Below the pieces are notes generated by a model, which did not search any database, was not told where the DNA came from, and saw nothing but the letters and a program-made list of their open reading frames with translations. Shown here piece by piece: positions 1 to 8,386 of a DNA stretch of 8,386 nucleotides. Source of the stretch: a virus (lineage: Monodnaviria > Loebvirae > Hofneiviricota > Faserviricetes > Tubulavirales > Inoviridae); IMG/VR virus record IMGVR_UViG_2703718850_000001. One strand, given 5' to 3'. The translations under genes were made by a program, and so were the position numbers. The stretch's first letter is position 1. Each line of letters starts with the position of its first letter.

Positions 1-771
1 ATGTGGAGTGCTATTGCTGGCGCTGCTGGCGCTATTGGTTCTGCTCTTCTTGGTGCTCATTCAGCAAAGGCTTCTGCTGACCGTGCCAATAAGATTACGA
101 TGGATTTGGCCAAAAATGGTATCCAGTATCGTGTGCAGGATTTACGGAAAGCTGGCCTCAATCCCATTCTGGCCGTTACAGGTTCCGGTGGTCTTGGTTC
201 CGTCAGTTCGTCAGGTATTCAGGCTGCCCAGCCTGCTGATTTTTCTGGTGCCGTCAGTTCTGCCGTTGCTGCATTTGATGCCTTAACGAAGCGTCAACAG
301 CAACAGGTTGCTAAGGAAGGTATTGAGTCACAGATTGCTTTGCAGCGTAACCAGATTGCGAATAGTGCGGCTGATGTACGTCTTAAGGATGCACAGGCTG
401 CTGCCGCTCTCCAGAACGTTGAGAACATGAAAACACAGTCTAATCTGACCAATCAGCAGATTTTGACCGAGGCAAGTCGGAGAGCTAATATCGAAGCACA
501 GACAGGCCTTAGCTCTGCACAGCGGATTAGAACTCAATATCAGACTGTTCAGGACAAGGTTCTGGCTGATTATTTGAATACACCTGTTGGAGCTGAAAGT
601 GCACGTGTCAATATGGATGCTTCTTCTGGCGGTCTTATCGGCGGGCTTAATACTTGGCTTAGTTCTTATAAGCGTGACCATGAGGCTAATTCGGCGAAGA
701 AAGTAAACAAGGGGGGACGCTTCCCCCCTTCACAGTTCCAGCAGCAGTTGATTAACAATTATCGGAGGTAA
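1..771 (+). CDS. Microviridae-like DNA pilot / minor spike protein (H/VP2-like)
   Basis: 256-aa ORF starting with ATG at window base 1. Gly/Ala-rich N-terminus MWSAIAGAAGAIGSALLG resembles the remembered phiX174 H N-terminus (MFGAIAGG...), followed by a Gln-rich, coiled-coil-like middle. Immediately followed by a J-like basic peptide gene. Call by recalled resemblance, no search run. Confidence 0.5.
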   Translation: MWSAIAGAAGAIGSALLGAHSAKASADRANKITMDLAKNGIQYRVQDLRKAGLNPILAVTGSGGLGSVSSSGIQAAQPADFSGAVSSAVAAFDALTKRQQQQVAKEGIESQIALQRNQIANSAADVRLKDAQAAAALQNVENMKTQSNLTNQQILTEASRRANIEAQTGLSSAQRIRTQYQTVQDKVLADYLNTPVGAESARVNMDASSGGLIGGLNTWLSSYKRDHEANSAKKVNKGGRFPPSQFQQQLINNYRR

Positions 772-773
772 TT

Positions 774-893
774 ATGGCTCGTTCCCGTAGACGTATGTCT
801 AAGCGTTCTTCCCGCCGTTCGTTCCGCAAGTATGCGAAGTCGCATAAGAAGAACTTTAAAGCCCGCTCAATGCGTGGCGGTATCCGTTTATAA
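774..893 (+). CDS. Small Arg/Lys-rich DNA-binding/packaging peptide (phiX174 J / gokushovirus VP8-like)
   Basis: 39 codons ATG..TAA, MARSRRRMSKRSSRRSFRKYAKSHKKNFKARSMRGGIRL; 18 of 39 residues are R/K. GGAGG at 764-768 lies 5 nt before the ATG. Too short for the ORF track. Position right after a pilot-like gene fits a microvirus structural module. Confidence 0.5.
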   Translation: MARSRRRMSKRSSRRSFRKYAKSHKKNFKARSMRGGIRL

Positions 894-909: not shown

Positions 910-938
910 TTTTGACATAACTTTACATTATGCGCACC
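910..938. other. dif-like XerC/XerD recombination site (candidate IMEX attachment junction)
   Basis: Minus strand reads GGTGCGCATAA-TGTAAAG-TTATGTCAAAA. Against the E. coli dif consensus GGTGCGCATAA-TGTATA-TTATGTTAAAT the XerC arm is 11/11, the XerD arm 9/11 and the central region is 7 bp rather than 6. It sits in the non-coding gap between the microvirus-like genes and the inovirus-side genes. Confidence 0.55.
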
Positions 939-976
939 AATGGTAAGGATGGCGGGAACTGGCGTTACCGGTGCCG

Positions 977-1210
977 TCATTGGTCACAGACCGTAATCCA
1001 CTGGCCCAGGACGTCTTTCAGGCAATGTTGGCATAAATCCAGTTTTAAGCGATTACTGTCACCAAAAATTGAACCGTATCCAGCTAAGTGATTAACAGAC
1101 AGAAACTCATTGAACTCAATGTCATCTACCACCGTCTTCGCATGGCGACCACAGCGATCGCAGGTCTTCGCACATAACATTACAGTATCGCTGGATGTGA
1201 AAAATTGCAT
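977..1210 (-). CDS. Hypothetical 77-aa protein with CxxC...CxxC (putative zinc ribbon)
   Basis: ATG at 1210 with GGAG 6 nt upstream (minus strand), TGA stop at 977-979. Two Cys pairs, CDRC and CQHC, about 40 residues apart. No homologue recognised. Lies between phage gene IV and the dif-like site. Confidence 0.5.
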   Translation of the reverse strand: MQFFTSSDTVMLCAKTCDRCGRHAKTVVDDIEFNEFLSVNHLAGYGSIFGDSNRLKLDLCQHCLKDVLGQWITVCDQ

Positions 1211-1327
1211 TTTATCTCCTCGTAATGCTGCCGCGCCGAATCAGCAATAACGCTAAAAAAACAGAATTGTTCGGCTTGGCCAACCCCTGACACTAACAAA
1301 AGCAAGTTTTGTCACTGTCCGGAGTTA

Positions 1328-1636
1328 TCATATAAACCAATAGACCGTCCTTACGCCATTCTGGTTATCAATAACATAGCCGCATTGTTTCCTTAAAAAT
1401 TCTTCTGCTAAATCAATGGCTTTTACAGAAATCTCATAAGAAGGAAGTAAAGTGTATCCTTTCCCTTCACTGGCAGCTGCTTTGATCGCATCCAGAGTAT
1501 TATCAATCAGTAACAGAGCAAGTGATGCTTCATTTACCTGAGCCGAAGAACTTCTGGCTGCAAGTGTCATTGTTTTTGCTTCTTCCGCTGTAATCGTTCG
1601 TTCTGCCAGAGCAGATAAAATCCCATAAGAATCCAT
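1328..1636 (-). CDS. Hypothetical 102-aa protein (unknown function)
   Basis: ATG at 1636 with a weak GGGG Shine-Dalgarno upstream, TGA stop at 1328-1330. Same strand as the phage genes, directly downstream of gene IV. No homologue recognised. Confidence 0.45.
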   Translation of the reverse strand: MDSYGILSALAERTITAEEAKTMTLAARSSSAQVNEASLALLLIDNTLDAIKAAASEGKGYTLLPSYEISVKAIDLAEEFLRKQCGYVIDNQNGVRTVYWFI

Positions 1637-1657
1637 TAGTTACCCCAATCAATAATG

Positions 1658-1715
1658 TCCATTTGATGGATAGCGAGCAGGGCTCACGCACCTACCCGCT
1701 ATCCATCAAAGTGGA
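1658..1715 (-). other. Long imperfect hairpin overlapping the gene IV stop codon (possible terminator or packaging-signal-like element)
   Basis: 14-bp perfect stem TTTGATGGATAGCG (1662-1675) pairs with CGCTATCCATCAAA (1697-1710), extended to about 18 bp with one bulge; 21-nt loop. Only a weakly T-rich tail follows on the minus strand. Confidence 0.3.
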
Positions 1716-2971
1716 CGAATGATATGTGCTGTAAGCAAAATATACATAATACGCTGTTCATTGCTGTCTGCCTTGCTACTGAAAATCCAGCCTATAAGAG
1801 GAATTTTACTTATAACTGGAACTGAACGCTCGGCATTGCTGAACGATGAATCGATAAGCCCCCCCAATAACAACGTCTGACCATCCTTAATCTGGACTGT
1901 CGTCTGAATCTGGCGCTGATTAGTAATAATATCGGATGCCTGATCATCATTGCTGATTGAATCAGCGCGAGTGTCGATAGTCAGAACTAGTTGCCCGTTA
2001 CCCATGACAACAGGCGTTACCTTGAGAGAAACGCCAACATCATGACGCTCGATAGTCTGAAACGGATTATTTACCCCGGCAGATTCGCCCGTTACCTTTC
2101 CGGTGATAAACGGCACATTCTTACCTACGGAAATGTAACCAGTCTGACCAGACTGAGTAAGAATACGCGGCGTTGAAATCACCTTAGAGCGTGAATTACT
2201 CTGGACAGCACGCAGAGACAGCGCCAACACGTTACCATCAAAAATACCAAAAGAACCGCCCGCCGTAGAAAGAGCGCTACCCAGTGCAGAAGTATTAAAG
2301 CCCCCCGCAACCTTATGACCGGATGCAGAACCTGCCGCAAACGATAAATCAACGCCATCAGACAAGCTGGTTTCAAACATCAGCGACTGAATGAGAACCT
2401 GATCGCGGGCAACATCCACAGAATTGATAAAATCGGACAGAACCGGCAGCAGCTCGTCAGGCGCAGAAACAATCAGCGAGTTATTGCCTGGATAATCCAC
2501 GACATTACCACCACCATTAGAATCAAGATAAATTTTAATCAGTTGCTGAACATCGGACGATCTAACTTTTGTCAGCTTAAAATTTCTGACCGTAAGCGCC
2601 ACAGGTACTGGCTGGTAAGATGGCTCAGAAGGAAAAGTATCATAAGACTGGTTATCAGAATCATCGGAATCCGAAACCATCTGTGAAGGTAATTTAGACG
2701 GCAAAGAGACTACCGCAGGATTGCCAGAAAGCATGACAAAACCGTTAGCATTCAGAACAGACTTAAAGAAATCATCAATATTTGCTGGATTAACATCAGC
2801 ATTAAATACGGTTACGTTTCCTTTAATATCAGGATTAACAATAACAGGCTTGCCAGTTTTTGAAGAATACCACTGAACAAATGAGCGAACAGATGAATTA
2901 TTTAAATTAACAGTTTCAGCAGAAACGCAGAATGAATAGGCAAATAAAAAAGCAACAATAACAGAGCGCAT
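1706..2971 (-). CDS. IV: Filamentous phage pIV secretin (outer-membrane export channel)
   Basis: 421 aa from ATG 2971-2969 (AGGAG 9 nt upstream), signal-peptide-like MRSVIVAFLFAYSFCVSA. Long runs match remembered M13 pIV (e.g. GKNVPFITGKVTGESAGVNNPFQTIER, QTLLLGGL, SKIPLIGW). The ORF-track extension to 3064 is an upstream alternative-start artefact overlapping gene I. Confidence 0.9.
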   Translation of the reverse strand: MRSVIVAFLFAYSFCVSAETVNLNNSSVRSFVQWYSSKTGKPVIVNPDIKGNVTVFNADVNPANIDDFFKSVLNANGFVMLSGNPAVVSLPSKLPSQMVSDSDDSDNQSYDTFPSEPSYQPVPVALTVRNFKLTKVRSSDVQQLIKIYLDSNGGGNVVDYPGNNSLIVSAPDELLPVLSDFINSVDVARDQVLIQSLMFETSLSDGVDLSFAAGSASGHKVAGGFNTSALGSALSTAGGSFGIFDGNVLALSLRAVQSNSRSKVISTPRILTQSGQTGYISVGKNVPFITGKVTGESAGVNNPFQTIERHDVGVSLKVTPVVMGNGQLVLTIDTRADSISNDDQASDIITNQRQIQTTVQIKDGQTLLLGGLIDSSFSNAERSVPVISKIPLIGWIFSSKADSNEQRIMYILLTAHIIRPL

Positions 2972-2978
2972 AATAATA

Positions 2979-3353
2979 TTACTCCTGACAGGTAACAGTC
3001 TGTAAATAACGGCCTTTTCTAATAACAACACGACAGGCATCTTTAATATCAACGGAATAACCATCTTTAATCAAATCAAAATACTGATATTTCATACCTT
3101 TTGCATCAACAAACGTAACGGAAACGTCAAAGCCAAGTTGTGAAAAAGAATTAATAGAAAGTCGGGGTAAGTCACTGGACGAATCAGGCGTTACCGCCCT
3201 CGCCTGTTCAGCATAAGCAGATTTAATAGCTGAGATTTCATCAACATTCTTTCCAGACTGGAGCCAGAAACCAAACGCAAGCCCCAGCGCCAAAAAAGAA
3301 AGCATTAATATAAGACGGTTCGATTTGCGAAAATAAATTTTAGTGAGGCGCAT
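2979..3353 (-). CDS. XI: Putative pXI (in-frame internal start within gene I)
   Basis: In-frame ATG at 3353-3351 is Met241 of pI, the same position as M13 pXI, with GAGGA upstream; the downstream hydrophobic segment matches the pI membrane anchor. Inferred by analogy with Ff only. Confidence 0.4.
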   Translation of the reverse strand: MRLTKIYFRKSNRLILMLSFLALGLAFGFWLQSGKNVDEISAIKSAYAEQARAVTPDSSSDLPRLSINSFSQLGFDVSVTFVDAKGMKYQYFDLIKDGYSVDIKDACRVVIRKGRYLQTVTCQE

Positions 3354-4073
3354 ATAATAATTAAATCCTCTGTGAACAGAAAATTGACCGTGCGTGATAA
3401 ATGGTGGCAAAAGCGAAAATGCGCCATGAGGATAATTATCTGTGAACGCTTGTTTGGTATTGTAAGCAGAATAAAGAGATTTTCCTGTATATATCCATTT
3501 ATCAACAGTGATTGAATTAACATTATCACCATATTTGACAATGCCAAAGTGTACCTTTGGTAAAGAAAATCTCGCCCCTGAAACCAAATTCATAATGGAG
3601 CCAACAAAAGGAATGTTTAATTTATCTGAACGGCGACAATAAACAACATGCTCAGCAAGCGCCAGACGAGCTTGCTTATCCATTATCGAAATATCCTGAA
3701 TCAAAAATATAATATCCCAGCCTAATTTTCTGGCATGTAAAAACCAGTCAATAACAGATTGTCTGTCTTTATCACCCCATGAGCGGGAATTAAACCAAGT
3801 ACCACATTCATCAAGTACAAGGAGGCCATTACGGGATTCATCGTAAGATGTATTCCCAATACCAATAGCAAGTAAATCATTTAATGAAGGCTTGTCAGGA
3901 ATGCGAATAACGCGCGTTTTTTTCGCATAACGCCCAACCATAGGCATATTATGCAATTTAAGATCAAGATTAGTGGCAACAGGACAACCCTTAGCAAGTC
4001 TTTCCTGTATTCTGGAAACACTAACAAGTGTCTTGCCTGAGCCTAATTTGCCTGTTACTACATAAACCGCCAT
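2979..4073 (-). CDS. I: Filamentous phage pI assembly ATPase (Zot-like)
   Basis: 364 aa; N-terminus MAVYVVTGKLGSGKTLVSV (Walker A) and much of the sequence closely match remembered M13 pI (MAVYFVTGKLGSGKTLVSV...LLVLDECGTWFN...HARKLGWDIIFL...). Start ATG 4073-4071 abuts the gene VI stop (TAAATG). Confidence 0.92.
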   Translation of the reverse strand: MAVYVVTGKLGSGKTLVSVSRIQERLAKGCPVATNLDLKLHNMPMVGRYAKKTRVIRIPDKPSLNDLLAIGIGNTSYDESRNGLLVLDECGTWFNSRSWGDKDRQSVIDWFLHARKLGWDIIFLIQDISIMDKQARLALAEHVVYCRRSDKLNIPFVGSIMNLVSGARFSLPKVHFGIVKYGDNVNSITVDKWIYTGKSLYSAYNTKQAFTDNYPHGAFSLLPPFITHGQFSVHRGFNYYMRLTKIYFRKSNRLILMLSFLALGLAFGFWLQSGKNVDEISAIKSAYAEQARAVTPDSSSDLPRLSINSFSQLGFDVSVTFVDAKGMKYQYFDLIKDGYSVDIKDACRVVIRKGRYLQTVTCQE

Positions 4074-4415
4074 TTAAATCACCCTGTTTGCATAATCAAG
4101 AAATTTTTGTTTTAAATCGAAAACAAAAACACTGATACGAGTAACCATAATAACGTTAACACACGCCTGAAAATGGTCAGGCAATACAGACGCCATTAAA
4201 TGGGAGAAATCAGCAGGTAAACCGTTATACATGACCTCAGCAAGGTACTGCATTAAAAGCGTAACAGTTGTTGTAATTAATGCGACCAATGCAAAGGCGA
4301 TTAATCCTGTTCTGGTAGCAAGTCGAGCTAAAAAACTCGCCACATAGCCAATAAACAAAGGGACAAGACCAATAAGAAAACGCAACAATGCAGGAATACC
4401 TAATAATAAAGGCAT
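4074..4415 (-). CDS. VI: Filamentous phage pVI minor coat protein
   Basis: 113 aa from ATG 4415-4413, [14 protein letters not shown] versus M13 pVI MPVLLGIPLLLRF; hydrophobic throughout. AAGGAGGT Shine-Dalgarno upstream. The gene III C-terminal frame stop overlaps this start as TGATG. Confidence 0.8.
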   Translation of the reverse strand: MPLLLGIPALLRFLIGLVPLFIGYVASFLARLATRTGLIAFALVALITTTVTLLMQYLAEVMYNGLPADFSHLMASVLPDHFQACVNVIMVTRISVFVFDLKQKFLDYANRVI

Positions 4416-4833
4416 CACTCACCTCCTTTGCGAAGCAATGAAGTTAAAGAAGTAAAGACATACCAGAACGTAAGGCAATAAAAAACCCATGAAAGAACAT
4501 CTTTAATAGTCAGTAATTTATCGCAACCAATATCAATCTGATAAACCTCTCCGGGAAAAATAATAAAATCAGAGCAGCCGTTACCATTGGGTAAATTAGG
4601 CAGCATAGCACCTTTATTTAAAAATGCTTCCCATAAAGCACCGTGAGAATCCTTTTCAATTCCCAATTCAGAATCAGCCAAAGTAGAAGCGCCATCTAAT
4701 TCAGAGTCGCCCTTTCCATAACGAGAATCACCACCTGAAGGGTCAGCAAAACGGCCAGCCCCCCGCGTAAGATTGTTAATGGAATCGTCAAGACGATTTA
4801 TATTATTCCTGGTTTGTTCATCGGCATTTTTTT
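4415..4833 (-). CDS. III: Gene III g3p C-terminal domain in the -1 frame (frameshifted continuation; pseudogene or slippage product)
   Basis: This frame is open from the A7 tract (plus 4827-4833) to TGA at 4417-4415. It encodes ...[51 protein letters not shown]..., resembling the M13 g3p C-terminal anchor (...ECRPFVFGAGKPYEFSIDCDKINLFRGVFAFLLYVATFMYVFSTF). It has no start of its own; the track's 4681 start is TTG. Confidence 0.7.
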
Positions 4834-5649
4834 ATCATCTGATGAAGTGTCTTTCTCCGTTAATTTATCATGAATATCGCTGGCTATTTTGGGTGAAGCA
4901 CCTTCGATCGCAGACTGAATATCACCTTTAGAAAGACTGGAACCACTAGAGCCACCGCCAGAACTACCGCCACCGGACTCACCACCGCCAGACTCACCAC
5001 CGCCGGACTCACCACCGCCAGACTCACCACCACCATTTTGGGGGGGTGAGGGTTTATCAGAGGGGTCAGCTACAGCACCTGTAGGCTTCCATGTTGCAGC
5101 GCAAACAGTACCATCACCCTGACAAACAATGACACCAGTAGCCTCATATTCACAGCCGTTATAGTAGATATAGCGACCACCATCATATGAATCAACATTA
5201 TTAAACACACCTTCTTCTGGCGGCTTCGCTTCACAAATTTCTTCTGGTGTCGGGTCAGTAGGTTTTTCATCAGGAACAGAACGCTGAATATTACCAACAA
5301 TATAAGCCGTTAAAGACCAATATTTATCCTTCTGCCCTGGTGAATCGCTGTAAGTACAATCACCAGTAAAAACAAGACGGAATTCAGAATCAGGCCAGAT
5401 ACCCTCATAAGTTGGTTTAACCCGAGTAAATACACTCTGAGCACTGGATTTAGCACCCTGACAAGCGGAGGCCTGCATAGCAGCATCAATATAGTAAACC
5501 GTTGTCTTAGAGCCATCCTGATTGGTTATTTGCTTACTTTCAGCGTAGGCAGAACTTTGATAAGTGGATTTAGTAATGCTTTCCCATGACTCAGCATGTG
5601 AAAAAGGAGAAATGAGGACAGCGGAAAGAATTAATATTTTCCTTTTCAT
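4798..5649 (-). CDS. III: Gene III adsorption protein g3p, N-terminal part (signal peptide, receptor domains, Gly-rich linker); reading frame ends early
   Basis: ATG at 5649-5647 gives [19 protein letters not shown] (signal peptide). A TolA-binding-N1-like segment [29 protein letters not shown] resembles M13 DRYANYEGCLWNATGVVVCTGDETQCYGTW, then a (GGGES)n linker. The frame stops at 4800-4798, 11 codons after an A7 run. The ORF-track extension to 5793 overlaps gene VIII in another frame and is not used. Confidence 0.75.
4951..5034 (-). repeat. Tandem 15-bp coding repeats (about 5 units) encoding the g3p [10 protein letters not shown] linker
   Basis: Plus strand shows repeating units of the form accaccgccagactc / accaccgccggactc; minus strand translation [30 protein letters not shown]. 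Confidence 0.8.
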
Positions 5650-5656
5650 AGTAACC

Positions 5657-5690
5657 CGCTTTAATAAAGGGGCAACGAGTGCCCCTGAGT
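5657..5690 (-). terminator. Rho-independent terminator between gene VIII and gene III
   Basis: On the minus strand, a GC-rich 7-bp stem AGGGGCA/TGCCCCT (5668-5674 pairs with 5680-5686) with a 5-nt loop is followed by TTTATTAAAG, directly after the gene VIII stop. Ff phages have a strong terminator at this position. Confidence 0.6.
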
Positions 5691-5695
5691 GAAAT

Positions 5696-5938
5696 TCAAA
5701 CCGCTTTTGAAGAGAATTTTTTGAAAATACGAATGGCAAGCCCAGCGCCAACCACAGCCACAACAACAGGCCATACTTTACCAATGAGATCATTTGCCTG
5801 AGTCAACAAAGCATCCATTGCCTGACCTGCATAATCAGTACCACCTGTAGCGCCTTCAGCCGCAAAAGAACTTGCAGAAATAAAAAGCGCAGTTGAAGCC
5901 AGAGCAACTTTATATTTAACAGTAGACAGAATTTTCAT
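5696..5938 (-). CDS. VIII: Filamentous phage major coat protein pVIII (IKe-like)
   Basis: 80-aa precursor: signal peptide ending SFA, then mature [54 protein letters not shown]. Acidic N-terminus, hydrophobic core and basic tail [12 protein letters not shown] closely match the remembered IKe coat protein (...[25 protein letters not shown]). ATG at 5938 with GGAG upstream. Confidence 0.92.
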
Positions 5939-5957
5939 AGGAATAACTCCATTAAGG

Positions 5958-6053
5958 TTACATTAATCGGTCAGAAAATGATTTAAATGAACCGACCGCA
6001 TAGAAAAGGGCAAAACCAAAGGTATAAGCCCCGAAGAAATAAACGATATACAT
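5958..6053 (-). CDS. IX: Putative pIX minor coat protein
   Basis: 31 aa, MYIVYFFGAYTFGFALFYAVGSFKSFSDRLM; small and hydrophobic, with C-terminal SDRLM resembling the M13 pIX TRLME region. ATG 6053-6051 overlaps the gene VII stop (TAATG). Too short for the ORF track. Confidence 0.6.
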   Translation of the reverse strand: MYIVYFFGAYTFGFALFYAVGSFKSFSDRLM

Positions 6054-6139
6054 TAACGAAAGACCCCCGCAGTAATCGCGCCGAGGCCAAAAGAAATAAC
6101 GATGCCAGACGCTATCAAAATTTGAATAACATCGTCCAT
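6053..6139 (-). CDS. VII: Putative pVII minor coat protein
   Basis: 28 aa, MDDVIQILIASGIVISFGLGAITAGVFR, resembling M13 pVII (...VVLCFALGIIAGGQR). ATG at 6139-6137 lies 2 nt after the gene V stop; TAA at 6055-6053. Confidence 0.6.
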   Translation of the reverse strand: MDDVIQILIASGIVISFGLGAITAGVFR

Positions 6140-6141
6140 AT

Positions 6142-6459
6142 TTAACCTTTGATCTCTGCGATGCCACCATCGGAAGAAACATTATAAGTTACACCTTCCC
6201 TACCCTCCATTGACCACGCACGGACATAGACAGGAATTTGAACTAATTTCCCAATGAAAGCATTCGCCTGGTTCATTAGACCTGCGTTAACGAGAGCCTG
6301 AGAAACTCGAATAATAATTTGATCCTGCTTTGTACCACCAAAACCATCAGGTATTTCAAGGCCAATACCAATTTCATTATAATAGCCCTGACCATTAACT
6401 TTATTACGTTGGCGGGCTCCCAACATTTTACCCTTAACGAAAAGACCATAATTAGACAT
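6142..6459 (-). CDS. Gene V-position protein (putative ssDNA-binding protein, assigned by synteny)
   Basis: 105 aa, ATG at 6459 with AAGGAAAG upstream, between gene II and gene VII exactly where Ff gene V sits. I do not recognise similarity to M13 or IKe gVp, so the function is inferred from position only. Confidence 0.45.
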   Translation of the reverse strand: MSNYGLFVKGKMLGARQRNKVNGQGYYNEIGIGLEIPDGFGGTKQDQIIIRVSQALVNAGLMNQANAFIGKLVQIPVYVRAWSMEGREGVTYNVSSDGGIAEIKG

Positions 6460-6470
6460 ATTACTTTCCT

Positions 6471-6785
6471 TTAATGCCAGCTACTGGCGTGCGAAATACG
6501 GTTGTAATCGAAAATAAAACCTTTCTCATAAATCCATAAGGGGATTTCCGCTGGCTTGGCTTCCAGCGTTCTTATTAGCGGAACAACGTTATTAGAGTCT
6601 GGTGAATCACAATAGAAATTAATATCGATACCGAACGAAAGCAATTCTCTTCTATGGCGATAAAAAGTGTTATGAGGTAACATTTCTTTCATGTTAGCCC
6701 CTTGTTTCCAAAGTAAATAAGTTGACTGTATTTTTCTTGGCAGTTTCGTTATTTTTTCATCACTTAAAATAGCATTCTGATTCAT
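6471..6785 (-). CDS. X: Putative pX (in-frame internal start within gene II)
   Basis: In-frame ATG at 6785-6783 with GGGAG 8 nt upstream; product MNQNAILSDEK... (104 aa) aligns with the start of M13 pX (MNIYDDSAVLDA...). Inferred by analogy with Ff. Confidence 0.4.
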   Translation of the reverse strand: MNQNAILSDEKITKLPRKIQSTYLLWKQGANMKEMLPHNTFYRHRRELLSFGIDINFYCDSPDSNNVVPLIRTLEAKPAEIPLWIYEKGFIFDYNRISHASSWH

Positions 6786-7565
6786 TTCTATTCTCCCTAC
6801 ATATTCAGAGAATAATTGACGTGGTGTTTTCATATTCCAGTTAGCGCCAAGCGTTAAATTTAAATCAATAAGCTCAGTTGTTCTTAATGTTAATTCAATA
6901 CGTAATTTATCTTTCGTCCAGTCCAGTAACCCGGCTCGTACAAACTCTTCGGCTATCTGGTGCCCTTTTTTACCAGAAACGTGTTCATCATATTTTGAAT
7001 AAAATTTCAGACTCCATCGACGGGAGTTTTTACCTAAATAAACTGTACCGCCTTTCCCACATGCGCGACCATGGCGTGTTTTAGCTTTAAATTCGGCGGC
7101 ATAAAGCCATGATCTGACATTTTCCAGCGTAGATAATGAATACATGTAATTAATGTCAACACGTGAAATTTTATACTGACCTGCCATAACGGCTTTATAA
7201 GACGCTAAATCATGAGGAATATTCAATAAGGATAAAATCCTGGCATAGACCGTCAACATGAGCCCTTGTATATCATCCGACCCAACAACAGAATGCCCCT
7301 GCAGAAACTTGGAAGGATTACCATCAATGTACAAATGTGTCGCTTTACCTTCGCCATTAGATCCTATCGATCGTACTTTCATCGTTGCTTCATGCGAGCC
7401 GCGAACAGTCAGTCGCTTAACGGTTTCCCACTCAATTGCACCGTCAGCATCAACGCTGACAACACTCCCCGCCGGAAGCGGTTTGTGTGTGCAAGGGAAA
7501 ATCCCGGTAAGCCAATCGATCACGAATAAATCCTCAAAATTGCAAAAATGACGACTTACTAACAC
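6471..7565 (-). CDS. II: Rolling-circle replication initiator pII (gene II); start uncertain
   Basis: Matches remembered M13 pII at NPSKFLQGHSVVG (M13 PAKVLQGHNVFG) and SNNVVPLIR (M13 CNNVVPLVR). The track start at 7565 is GTG; a better-supported start is GTG 7520-7518, preceded by GAGGA, giving about 349 aa. Shorter than M13 pII (410 aa). Confidence 0.85.
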   Translation of the reverse strand: MLVSRHFCNFEDLFVIDWLTGIFPCTHKPLPAGSVVSVDADGAIEWETVKRLTVRGSHEATMKVRSIGSNGEGKATHLYIDGNPSKFLQGHSVVGSDDIQGLMLTVYARILSLLNIPHDLASYKAVMAGQYKISRVDINYMYSLSTLENVRSWLYAAEFKAKTRHGRACGKGGTVYLGKNSRRWSLKFYSKYDEHVSGKKGHQIAEEFVRAGLLDWTKDKLRIELTLRTTELIDLNLTLGANWNMKTPRQLFSEYVGRIEMNQNAILSDEKITKLPRKIQSTYLLWKQGANMKEMLPHNTFYRHRRELLSFGIDINFYCDSPDSNNVVPLIRTLEAKPAEIPLWIYEKGFIFDYNRISHASSWH

Positions 7566-7692
7566 ATGAGTTCAGTAGTTCATTAGTGTTTTAACATTAC
7601 ACCAGTGAGCTAGTGAGTTCAAGAGGCTTGGATGATATGAGTTCATGAGCATGTATACTCACTTCAAATATTGCATTGAACGAGCGTAAAAA
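7566..7692. promoter_or_regulatory. Divergent intergenic control region with repeated TGAGTTCA motifs (candidate operator or origin repeats and promoters)
   Basis: ATGAGTTCA at 7566-7574 and 7637-7645, GTGAGTTCA at 7613-7621, plus partial copies (TAGTTCA 7576-7582, AGTGAGC 7604-7610). Candidate minus-strand promoter for gene II: TTGAAC (plus 7617-7622), 17-bp spacer, TAATGT (plus 7594-7599). Candidate plus-strand -10 TATACT at 7654-7659 for the regulator gene. Confidence 0.4.
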
Positions 7693-7875
7693 ATGGCAAA
7701 GCGCACGACTTATAACGTGACGGAAGAAAGAAAAATGAAACTAGAACGACTGGCTATAAATGCCAGTGTAAAACTAGGAAAAACAATTACATGGACAGAG
7801 ATTTTAGGTTATCTGATTGATAACTACTCTAAAGATGCAGCAGAAGATCTCATGTCTGCCAAACAAAAGGATTAA
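7693..7875 (+). CDS. Ribbon-helix-helix (CopG/Arc-like) transcriptional regulator, candidate phage repressor
   Basis: 60 aa, MAKRTTYNVTEERKMKLERLAINASVKLGKTITWTEILGYLIDNYSKD. The pattern (basic N-terminal strand, then two helices) matches the remembered CopG fold (MKKRLTITLSESVLENLEKMAREMGLSKSAMISVALENYKK). Divergently transcribed from gene II, like rstR relative to rstA in CTXphi. Confidence 0.55.
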   Translation: MAKRTTYNVTEERKMKLERLAINASVKLGKTITWTEILGYLIDNYSKDAAEDLMSAKQKD

Positions 7876-7893
7876 GTACCACGAATGGTACAA

Positions 7894-7930
7894 ACGTGCA
7901 GTATTACCAACACTGCACGTTCTTTATTGT
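7894..7930 (+). terminator. Rho-independent terminator downstream of the RHH gene
   Basis: 9-bp stem ACGTGCAGT (7894-7902) pairs with ACTGCACGT (7912-7920), 9-nt loop, followed by TCTTTATTGTG. Confidence 0.5.
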
Positions 7931-7963
7931 GCGAATTTTGAACAGTGAAAAAGGATCAAAAGG

Positions 7964-8386
7964 ATGAGTAGAAATAACGAAACAAGCGGCGTTGAACTGG
8001 TTGTCGTCGGCGTATTTGCTTTCTGTCTGGCAGTTGTTGCCTGGCTAATGAAAACTTTCGATGTTGAATGGCAAACAGCACTGGAAACTGCGCCTGGCCT
8101 GGTAGTCTGGTTGCTTGCTGTCGGAGCGGGGATCTTTTTCGGGATCAAAATGGAAACAGGTCTTGTTCGCTGGGGTGCTCCACTGGCGATCGCCCTTCTG
8201 ATTCCGGTATTCAAACCAATTCTTAAGGAAGCTGCCGGAGTACGTGAAATGGGTGGGTTGGTTTTCGATGATATGGTTTCGTGGTACGGAACTGGCTGGG
8301 GAATGTCGTTGATGTTTTTCGGAATTCTTATCATTGGATACGGACTTCTTTATTGGTGGCACAGAAGAAACTCATATTACTGGTAA
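7964..8386 (+). CDS. Small integral membrane protein (about 4 predicted TM segments), unknown function
   Basis: 140 aa; ATG at 7964 preceded by AAAGG/AAGGA; hydrophobic stretches VVVGVFAFCLAVVAWLM, LVVWLLAVGAGIFFGI, APLAIALLIPVF, MSLMFFGILIIGYGLLYWW. Stop TAA is the last three bases of the window. Preferred over the overlapping minus-strand ORF 7924-8334, which is Pro/Thr/Ser-rich and low in complexity. Confidence 0.5.
   Translation: MSRNNETSGVELVVVGVFAFCLAVVAWLMKTFDVEWQTALETAPGLVVWLLAVGAGIFFGIKMETGLVRWGAPLAIALLIPVFKPILKEAAGVREMGGLVFDDMVSWYGTGWGMSLMFFGILIIGYGLLYWWHRRNSYYW

Follow-up and report, generated by a model that had tools for sequence, protein, structure and literature searches.

A probable hybrid Xer junction between a gokushovirus and a filamentous prophage at the dif locus of Escherichia coli G301

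In attP sites of the TLCφ type the central region is identical to that of dif and the XerD arm is highly divergent. The attP of VGJφ is one 29-bp site in which spacer homology is absent on the XerD side (PMC4246890); exchange is carried out by XerC only and is reversible, and the Holliday junction is resolved by replication (PMC4246890, PMC5357621). Among gokushoviruses, lysogeny of EC6098, a relative of the phage described here, needs host xerC and xerD and both arms of the dif-motif, and its excision is spontaneous and continuous (PMC7062461). In strain EC6163, whose prophage site has a 7-bp spacer, circular genomes were detected by PCR; these circles could have come from rolling-circle replication instead of Xer excision. 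Experiments on gokushovirus sites were performed with the 6-bp design only (EC6098, spacer identical to dif) (PMC7062461). The site analysed here is already known, since it was tabulated by Kirchberger & Ochman (eLife 2020), whose Supplementary file 1 lists G301 (GCF_001576205.1, NZ_LOPD01000013) in clade D with phage dif-site GGTGCGCATAATGTAAAGTTATGTCAAA and bacterial dif-site AGTGCGCATAATGTATATTATGTTAAAT (PMC7062461). Their Enterogokushovirus 'phage dif-motif' is the same object, with which position after VP8, orientation and flanking dif agree; it was printed as 28 nt without comment on the 7-bp spacing, the only remark on the design being that spacer and XerD arms are 'more variable', and the main text makes no mention of a filamentous phage or of a tandem arrangement (PMC7062461). 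To judge by titles and abstracts, later papers that name the genus do not seem to have taken the mechanism of enterogokushovirus attachment sites any further.

The window, i.e. the whole stretch of 8386 nucleotides that was analysed, corresponds exactly to positions 10001–18386 of L009, a 64-kb contig of E. coli G301 (GCA_001576205.1, contig LOPD01000013.1) with chromosomal genes on either flank. Window positions 910–938 hold a dif-like XerC/XerD site of 29 bp, which reads GGTGCGCATAA-TGTAAAG-TTATGTCAAAA on the minus strand (in full GGTGCGCATAATGTAAAGTTATGTCAAAA), correctly given in every detail by an earlier note made from the letters alone. Its layout is 11 + 7 + 11, with the XerC-binding arm GGTGCGCATAA at 928–938, the central region TGTAAAG at 921–927 and the XerD-binding arm TTATGTCAAAA at 910–920, all on the minus strand. 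On comparison with canonical E. coli dif (GGTGCGCATAA-TGTATA-TTATGTTAAAT), which is intact in E. coli UM146 (L004 4000–4027), the XerC arm matched at 11/11 and the XerD arm at 9/11 positions. Both counts agree with the note, which had also called the XerD arm degenerate; the two mismatches are there, but the degeneracy is mild. In the central region TGTA (927–924) is common to the dif spacer TGTATA, and AAG (923–921) is phage-specific and identical in the free Microvirus mar4. The window was searched for the E. coli dif arms with a 7-N spacer, allowing up to 3 mismatches; the site was the sole match, with 2 mismatches, both in the XerD arm, and 0.00 chance matches were expected (200 dinucleotide shuffles). 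The same arms with a 6-N spacer gave 0 window matches at up to 3 mismatches, so that the 7-bp reading stands and the central region is one base longer than the 6 bp of dif, as had been claimed. A relaxed scan (spacers 5–8, up to 6 mismatches) yielded neither a further dif-like site nor an inverted partner of the site in the window.

In L009 the site (10910–10938) belongs to an array with three minus-strand dif-like sites, all of them direct repeats. Downstream of ydeP and fimbrial genes, a near-canonical dif, AGTGCGCATAA-TGTATA-TTATGTTAAAT, occupies 6424–6451 on the minus strand (6-bp spacer; XerC arm 10/11, XerD arm 11/11); neither of the other two repeats shares the canonical 6-bp spacer and the perfect XerD arm of this fimbrial-side site. 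It is followed by a complete gokushovirus prophage (6452–10909) with genes for Rep, VP5, VP3 scaffold, VP1 capsid, VP2 and VP8 only and none for an integrase or other recombinase of its own, by the site itself and, from 10939, by a filamentous prophage with pII, G5P, G7P, pVIII, pIII, DUF5455, Zot/pI, secretin pIV and an AbiJ-like cargo gene. Beyond these are an inverted dif-like site, GGTTCGCACAA-TGACG-TTATGCTAAAG (19405–19431, plus strand), a third junction, the inovirus hybrid GGTGCGCATAA-TGTCAACGCG-TTATGTTGAAA with 10-bp spacing (19466–19497, minus strand), and, downstream of it, hipA and hipB. The dif-type site at 6424–6451, at the chromosomal dif locus, has the same orientation as the site at 910–938 and bounds the gokushovirus prophage on its far side. 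The site at 910–938 is the right-hand junction of that prophage and at the same time the left boundary of the inovirus prophage: similarity to gokushoviruses (the free circular Microvirus mar4 and the E. coli C5 prophage) extends to window 939–940, and similarity to the inovirus prophage in 47 complete E. coli genomes begins at 908–911. The note's boundary between two phage modules was therefore placed correctly. Its view that the site is an IMEX junction and not a chromosomal dif also held, the near-canonical dif lying 4.46 kb away at the other gokushovirus prophage end; the host dif there differs from the site in its 6-bp spacer and perfect XerD arm, second and third junctions are present, and the whole array is chromosomal, between the fimbrial/ydeP genes and hipBA.

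The gokushovirus part of the window consists of the complete gene for VP2, the DNA pilot protein (1–771, plus strand; at nucleotide level 84.7% identical to the gene annotated as 'DNA pilot protein' in Microvirus mar4 and about 80% identical to vp2 of EC6098), whose protein has exact copies on at least 24 E. coli contigs, and of the gene for VP8, an arginine/lysine-rich protein of 39 amino acids (774–893, plus strand; 86% nucleotide identity to EC6098 vp8), which is the final gene before attP. The free circular genome of mar4 has the identical 29-mer (L002 2768–2796) between VP8 and Rep, where it is an attP. In mar4 the 17 nt from the VP8 stop codon to the site have diverged, so that conservation is a property of the site proper. 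When IMG/VR was scanned with the pattern GCGCATAATGTANNGTTATGTCAAA, 0 further free genomes with the 7-bp design were matched, which leaves mar4 as the only free-phage witness, and an INPHARED search with VP8 and the site matched mar4 and EC6098 only. As a prophage, the 4515-nt unit is present in 11 E. coli contigs and differs from that of G301 at 36 positions in C5 and at no more than 3 in the other nine. To judge from this near-identity in different hosts and contexts, the gokushovirus has recently been mobile.

In all 11 contigs the left site is TGTATA-TTATGTTAAAT joined to AGTGCGCATAA and phage flank, and the right site is TTATGTCAAAA-TGTAAAG (other-strand reading) joined to a XerC arm. The XerD arm is invariant in all lysogens and in mar4, and at the right end only the XerC arm and the sequence past it vary. 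At least four different right-hand flanks were found there: hipA flank occurs in three variants, three contigs have an IS/SIR2-gene remnant, and G301 has the filamentous prophage; the right-hand site of L012 has a variant XerC arm, GATGCGCATAA. The gokushovirus's own XerC arm AGTGCGCATAA, whose first base is A, sits at the opposite end of the prophage in 11/11 lysogens, and the accatt flank of the site at 910–938 also borders the perfect dif of the inovirus-only strain UM146, at the corresponding prophage end. As the phage part is constant and the right flanks vary, spacer and XerD arm derive from the phage and the XerC arm from the resident dif, here at the inovirus end. Window 910–923 (XerD arm and AAG) is therefore gokushovirus DNA and 938 onward is resident DNA, and strand exchange occurred within 924–937. 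This stretch of 14 nt, read from the junction sequences, contains the point of XerC cleavage (927|928), and that of XerD cleavage falls outside it. How the array is built, where the two halves of the site come from and within which interval they crossed over are shown; XerC-only catalysis is compatible with the interval but not proven by it.

The site at 910–938 is very probably a hybrid Xer junction within an IMEX array at E. coli dif. It combines dif-like arms, a phage lacking its own recombinase, a second dif-type site in direct orientation and an attP in the free circle, as IMEX junctions do. A clade-D enterogokushovirus would carry a single double-stranded attP, AGTGCGCATAA-TGTAAAG-TTATGTCAAAA, between VP8 and the Rep gene, which host XerC/XerD would pair with a resident dif-type site, with strand exchange at the border of XerC arm and spacer. 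The site at 910–938 accordingly unites the spacer and XerD arm of the phage with the XerC arm of the resident site; its reciprocal, at the opposite end of the prophage, has the phage XerC arm, chromosomal TGTATA and the perfect XerD arm, and would be the dif (L009 6424–6451) now serving the chromosome. Since spacer homology with dif (TGTA) is on the XerC side only, we infer a VGJφ-like pathway, in which XerC would exchange one strand pair without FtsK and the Holliday junction would then be resolved by replication or repair. By analogy with VGJφ this pathway, including its catalytic order and XerC-only exchange, is the most likely one for the site. The two direct repeats 4.46 kb apart could also allow XerC-driven excision of a circular phage genome, with the predicted products cctcttAGTGCGCATAA-TGTAAAG-TTATGTCAAAAggtgcc as circle junction and accattGGTGCGCATAA-TGTATA-TTATGTTAAATcatgtc (next to accatt) as empty site; on the same analogy, the site is presumably still an excision substrate, with the dif 4.46 kb away as partner.

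Compared with the described types, the site appears to work like a VGJφ-type attP without belonging to the VGJφ phage group. The attP sites of VGJφ, VEJφ, VSK and others (Vibrio cholerae) are likewise single double-stranded 29-bp sites of 11 + 7 + 11, likewise have spacer homology to dif beside the XerC arm only (here TGTAAAG versus TGTATA, first 4 bases), and likewise leave two Xer-competent sites flanking the prophage, so that integration is reversible. Their carriers, however, are inoviruses of Vibrio, whereas the carrier here is a microvirus (Gokushovirinae) of E. coli and thus lies outside the Inoviridae. The site is not a folded attP(+) of the CTXφ type, as it is without an inverted partner in the window; a folded attP(+) like those of CTXφ, YpfΦ and CUS-1φ is a feature of the neighbouring inovirus and not of the site at 910–938. 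The spacing of the site is also usable by Xer, in contrast to the 10-bp spacing of the CTXφ-type hybrid after integration. It does not fit the TLCφ type, as its spacer differs from dif and its XerD arm matches at 9/11 positions; EC6098-type sites (TGTATA with TTTAGTTTAAC, 7/11) come nearer to that type. With the chromosomal dif of E. coli it has in common the identical XerC arm, the 9/11 XerD arm, the locus and the orientation, but the spacer is 7 instead of 6 bp and the three spacer bases beside the XerD arm differ, so that it is not the 28-bp dimer-resolution site with a 6-bp center.

From the perfect XerC arm, the 9/11 XerD arm and the position in the terminus region adjoining hipBA, one might argue that the strain resolves its chromosome dimers at this site, which would then be a working chromosomal dif with a variant 7-bp spacer, but this is highly improbable. 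The identification is ruled out by a site on the same contig, at a distance of 4.46 kb, that has the TGTATA spacer and an 11/11 XerD arm; moreover, a free phage genome contains the 29-mer, which is absent from inovirus-only and prophage-free arrangements, and the spacer is without dif homology beside the XerD cleavage point, which is the first used in FtsK-activated exchange. Just as little credence can be given to a plasmid-type multimer resolution site (cer/psi-like) on an extrachromosomal replicon, or to an assembly chimera. Xer sites with spacers above 6 bp (cer, 8 bp) are typical of plasmids (PMC5357621), and the G301 source is a draft assembly; yet the 64-kb contig is chromosomal on both flanks, which rules out the replicon, and plasmid genes are absent from it, while against a chimera stand the report of the contig from 2 samples and the length of the shared repeat (at most 15–28 nt), too short to mislead an assembly of modern reads.

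A rival history deserves more attention, although we consider it unlikely. The site could first have been a gokushovirus–hipA junction and then have served as attB for the filamentous phage, which would have entered at this imperfect 7-bp site and not at canonical dif; that the site is in this sense an inovirus attL made on a gokushovirus scar is equally unlikely. A gokushovirus-only arrangement in which this site adjoins hipA does exist (L003, L005–L007), preferred integration of YpfΦ at an imperfect dif between resident copies has been reported (PMC4266046), and exchange at the XerC border would in either order of arrival give the same three junction sequences as seen in L009. The order of arrival of the two prophages was sought in the junction sequences and, as both orders predict identical junctions, it cannot be read from them. 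According to the standard IMEX model, however, a newcomer enters at the functional dif, whose chromosomal XerD-arm side is the position of the gokushovirus; the gokushovirus also hardly varies from one diverse host to the next, with no more than 3 SNPs in nine of the other ten contigs, whereas the inovirus differs by about 0.6–1% from its closest relatives. The model and the lower divergence suggest that the gokushovirus was the later arrival.

Most of the dif-integrated inovirus prophage lies within the window (939–8386, minus strand), as assigned from Pfam and from the RefSeq annotation of 99% identical prophages. It comprises two small ORFs, secretin pIV (1706–2971), Zot/pI (2979–4073), DUF5455 (4074–4415), a frameshifted pIII (about 4415–5700), coat protein pVIII (5696–5938), G7P (6053–6139), G5P (6142–6459), pII (6471–7523) and two ORFs on the plus strand (7693–7875 and 7964–8386). 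In the pIII gene one A has been lost from an A7 run of the minus strand (4827–4833; A8 in NCTC9104), and with the frameshift the C-terminal domain is lost; the gene also has a Gly/Ser-rich linker shorter by 57 nt. The inovirus prophage may be defective, or the frameshift may be a homopolymer error of the draft assembly. At the hipA-side end of the prophage, beyond the window (hairpin region L009 19398–19505), the inverted sites 19405–19431 (plus) and 19466–19497 (minus) fold, on the plus strand of the phage, into a forked hairpin with a ΔG of −34.3 kcal/mol (z −7.55). This is an attP(+) of the CTXφ/YpfΦ type, of the kind reported from YpfΦ and CUS-1. In some E. coli genomes the inovirus prophage forms a head-to-tail tandem (L001, NCTC9104, 1–14640) with the inter-copy junction GGTGCGCATAA-TGTCAACGCG-TTATGTTGAAA, which parallels the YpfΦ tandems in Y. 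pestis (L018, NCTC5923). The label 'CUS-1' was considered for the inovirus and rejected: the Y. pestis YpfΦ tandem (8742-bp unit, L018), for which 99% identity to CUS-1 has been reported, matches the replication module only (6135–7522, about 80% nucleotide identity) apart from short patches, and no nucleotide similarity to it was found for the inovirus morphogenesis genes.

Beside the inovirus attP there is a variable cargo slot (L009 18470–19399, which starts shortly past the right end of the window, L004 11562–12316, L008 11198–13583), which holds an AbiJ-like gene (AbiJ_NTD4 and Abi_C) in G301 and NCTC9104 and genes for a zinc-binding protein and a hypothetical protein in UM146. Three contigs have only a 2.8-kb remnant in the interval between gokushovirus and hipA, with a SIR2_2 gene, an unannotated ORF of 272 amino acids and one attP half-site. 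The genes of the cargo slot look like defence-type genes carried at dif. A copy of the inovirus prophage with 98.9% identity (window 911–8386) was found in L016 (JARKOR010000214.1), from a MAG labelled Candidatus Nanosynbacter sp.; it is most likely a mis-binned enterobacterial contig in a Saccharibacteria MAG.

Within the genus, Supplementary file 1 of PMC7062461 shows two designs of the attachment site. The 7-bp design, with the spacers TGTAAAG, TGTAAGG, TGTAGCG or TGTAACG and the XerD arm TTATGTCAAA, is found in clades A, B, D and I; the 6-bp design, with a spacer identical to dif and a weak XerD arm (TTTAGTTTAAC or GATGTTAAGG), is found in clades C, E–H and J, including EC6098. For EC6098 the latter was confirmed on NC_048874 (6-bp spacer identical to dif, XerD arm 7/11). 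In the rows for OLC1558, VREC0615 and clade B, some of the listed 'bacterial dif-sites' are not dif (e.g. AGTGCGCATAATGAGGCGTTATGGTAAA, AGTGTGCATAATTTATTTTATGTTAAAT) and in some of the phage sites the XerC arm is not that of dif (TAGGCGTACAA). These rows suggest further unrecognised IMEX arrays, or secondary targets, beside gokushovirus prophages.

The site at 910–938 is thus a correctly called but ordinary, catalogued IMEX junction of a known mechanistic type. Its value lies in a clean natural mixed Microviridae–Inoviridae array at E. coli dif, the junctions of which map exchange to 14 nt holding the XerC cleavage point. What is added to the published record is modest, namely the tandem with an inovirus, in a field where experiments have been limited to the 6-bp design; the 7-bp design of clades A, B, D and I, set against that tested design, may bear on whether gokushoviruses differ in the reversibility of lysogeny. 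Tentatively, and with rather more doubt than confidence, one could propose that two modes of Xer hijacking occur in one genus and that Microviridae junctions act as landing or exchange sites for Inoviridae. One mode may be VGJφ-like, by analogy, with a 7-bp spacer, a good XerD arm and XerC-only exchange, as in the window; the other, that of EC6098, may be TLCφ-like or dif-like and combine the 6-bp spacer of dif with a poor XerD arm. If mixed arrays with shared junctions of this kind are real, the stability or the co-mobilisation of both phages could change.
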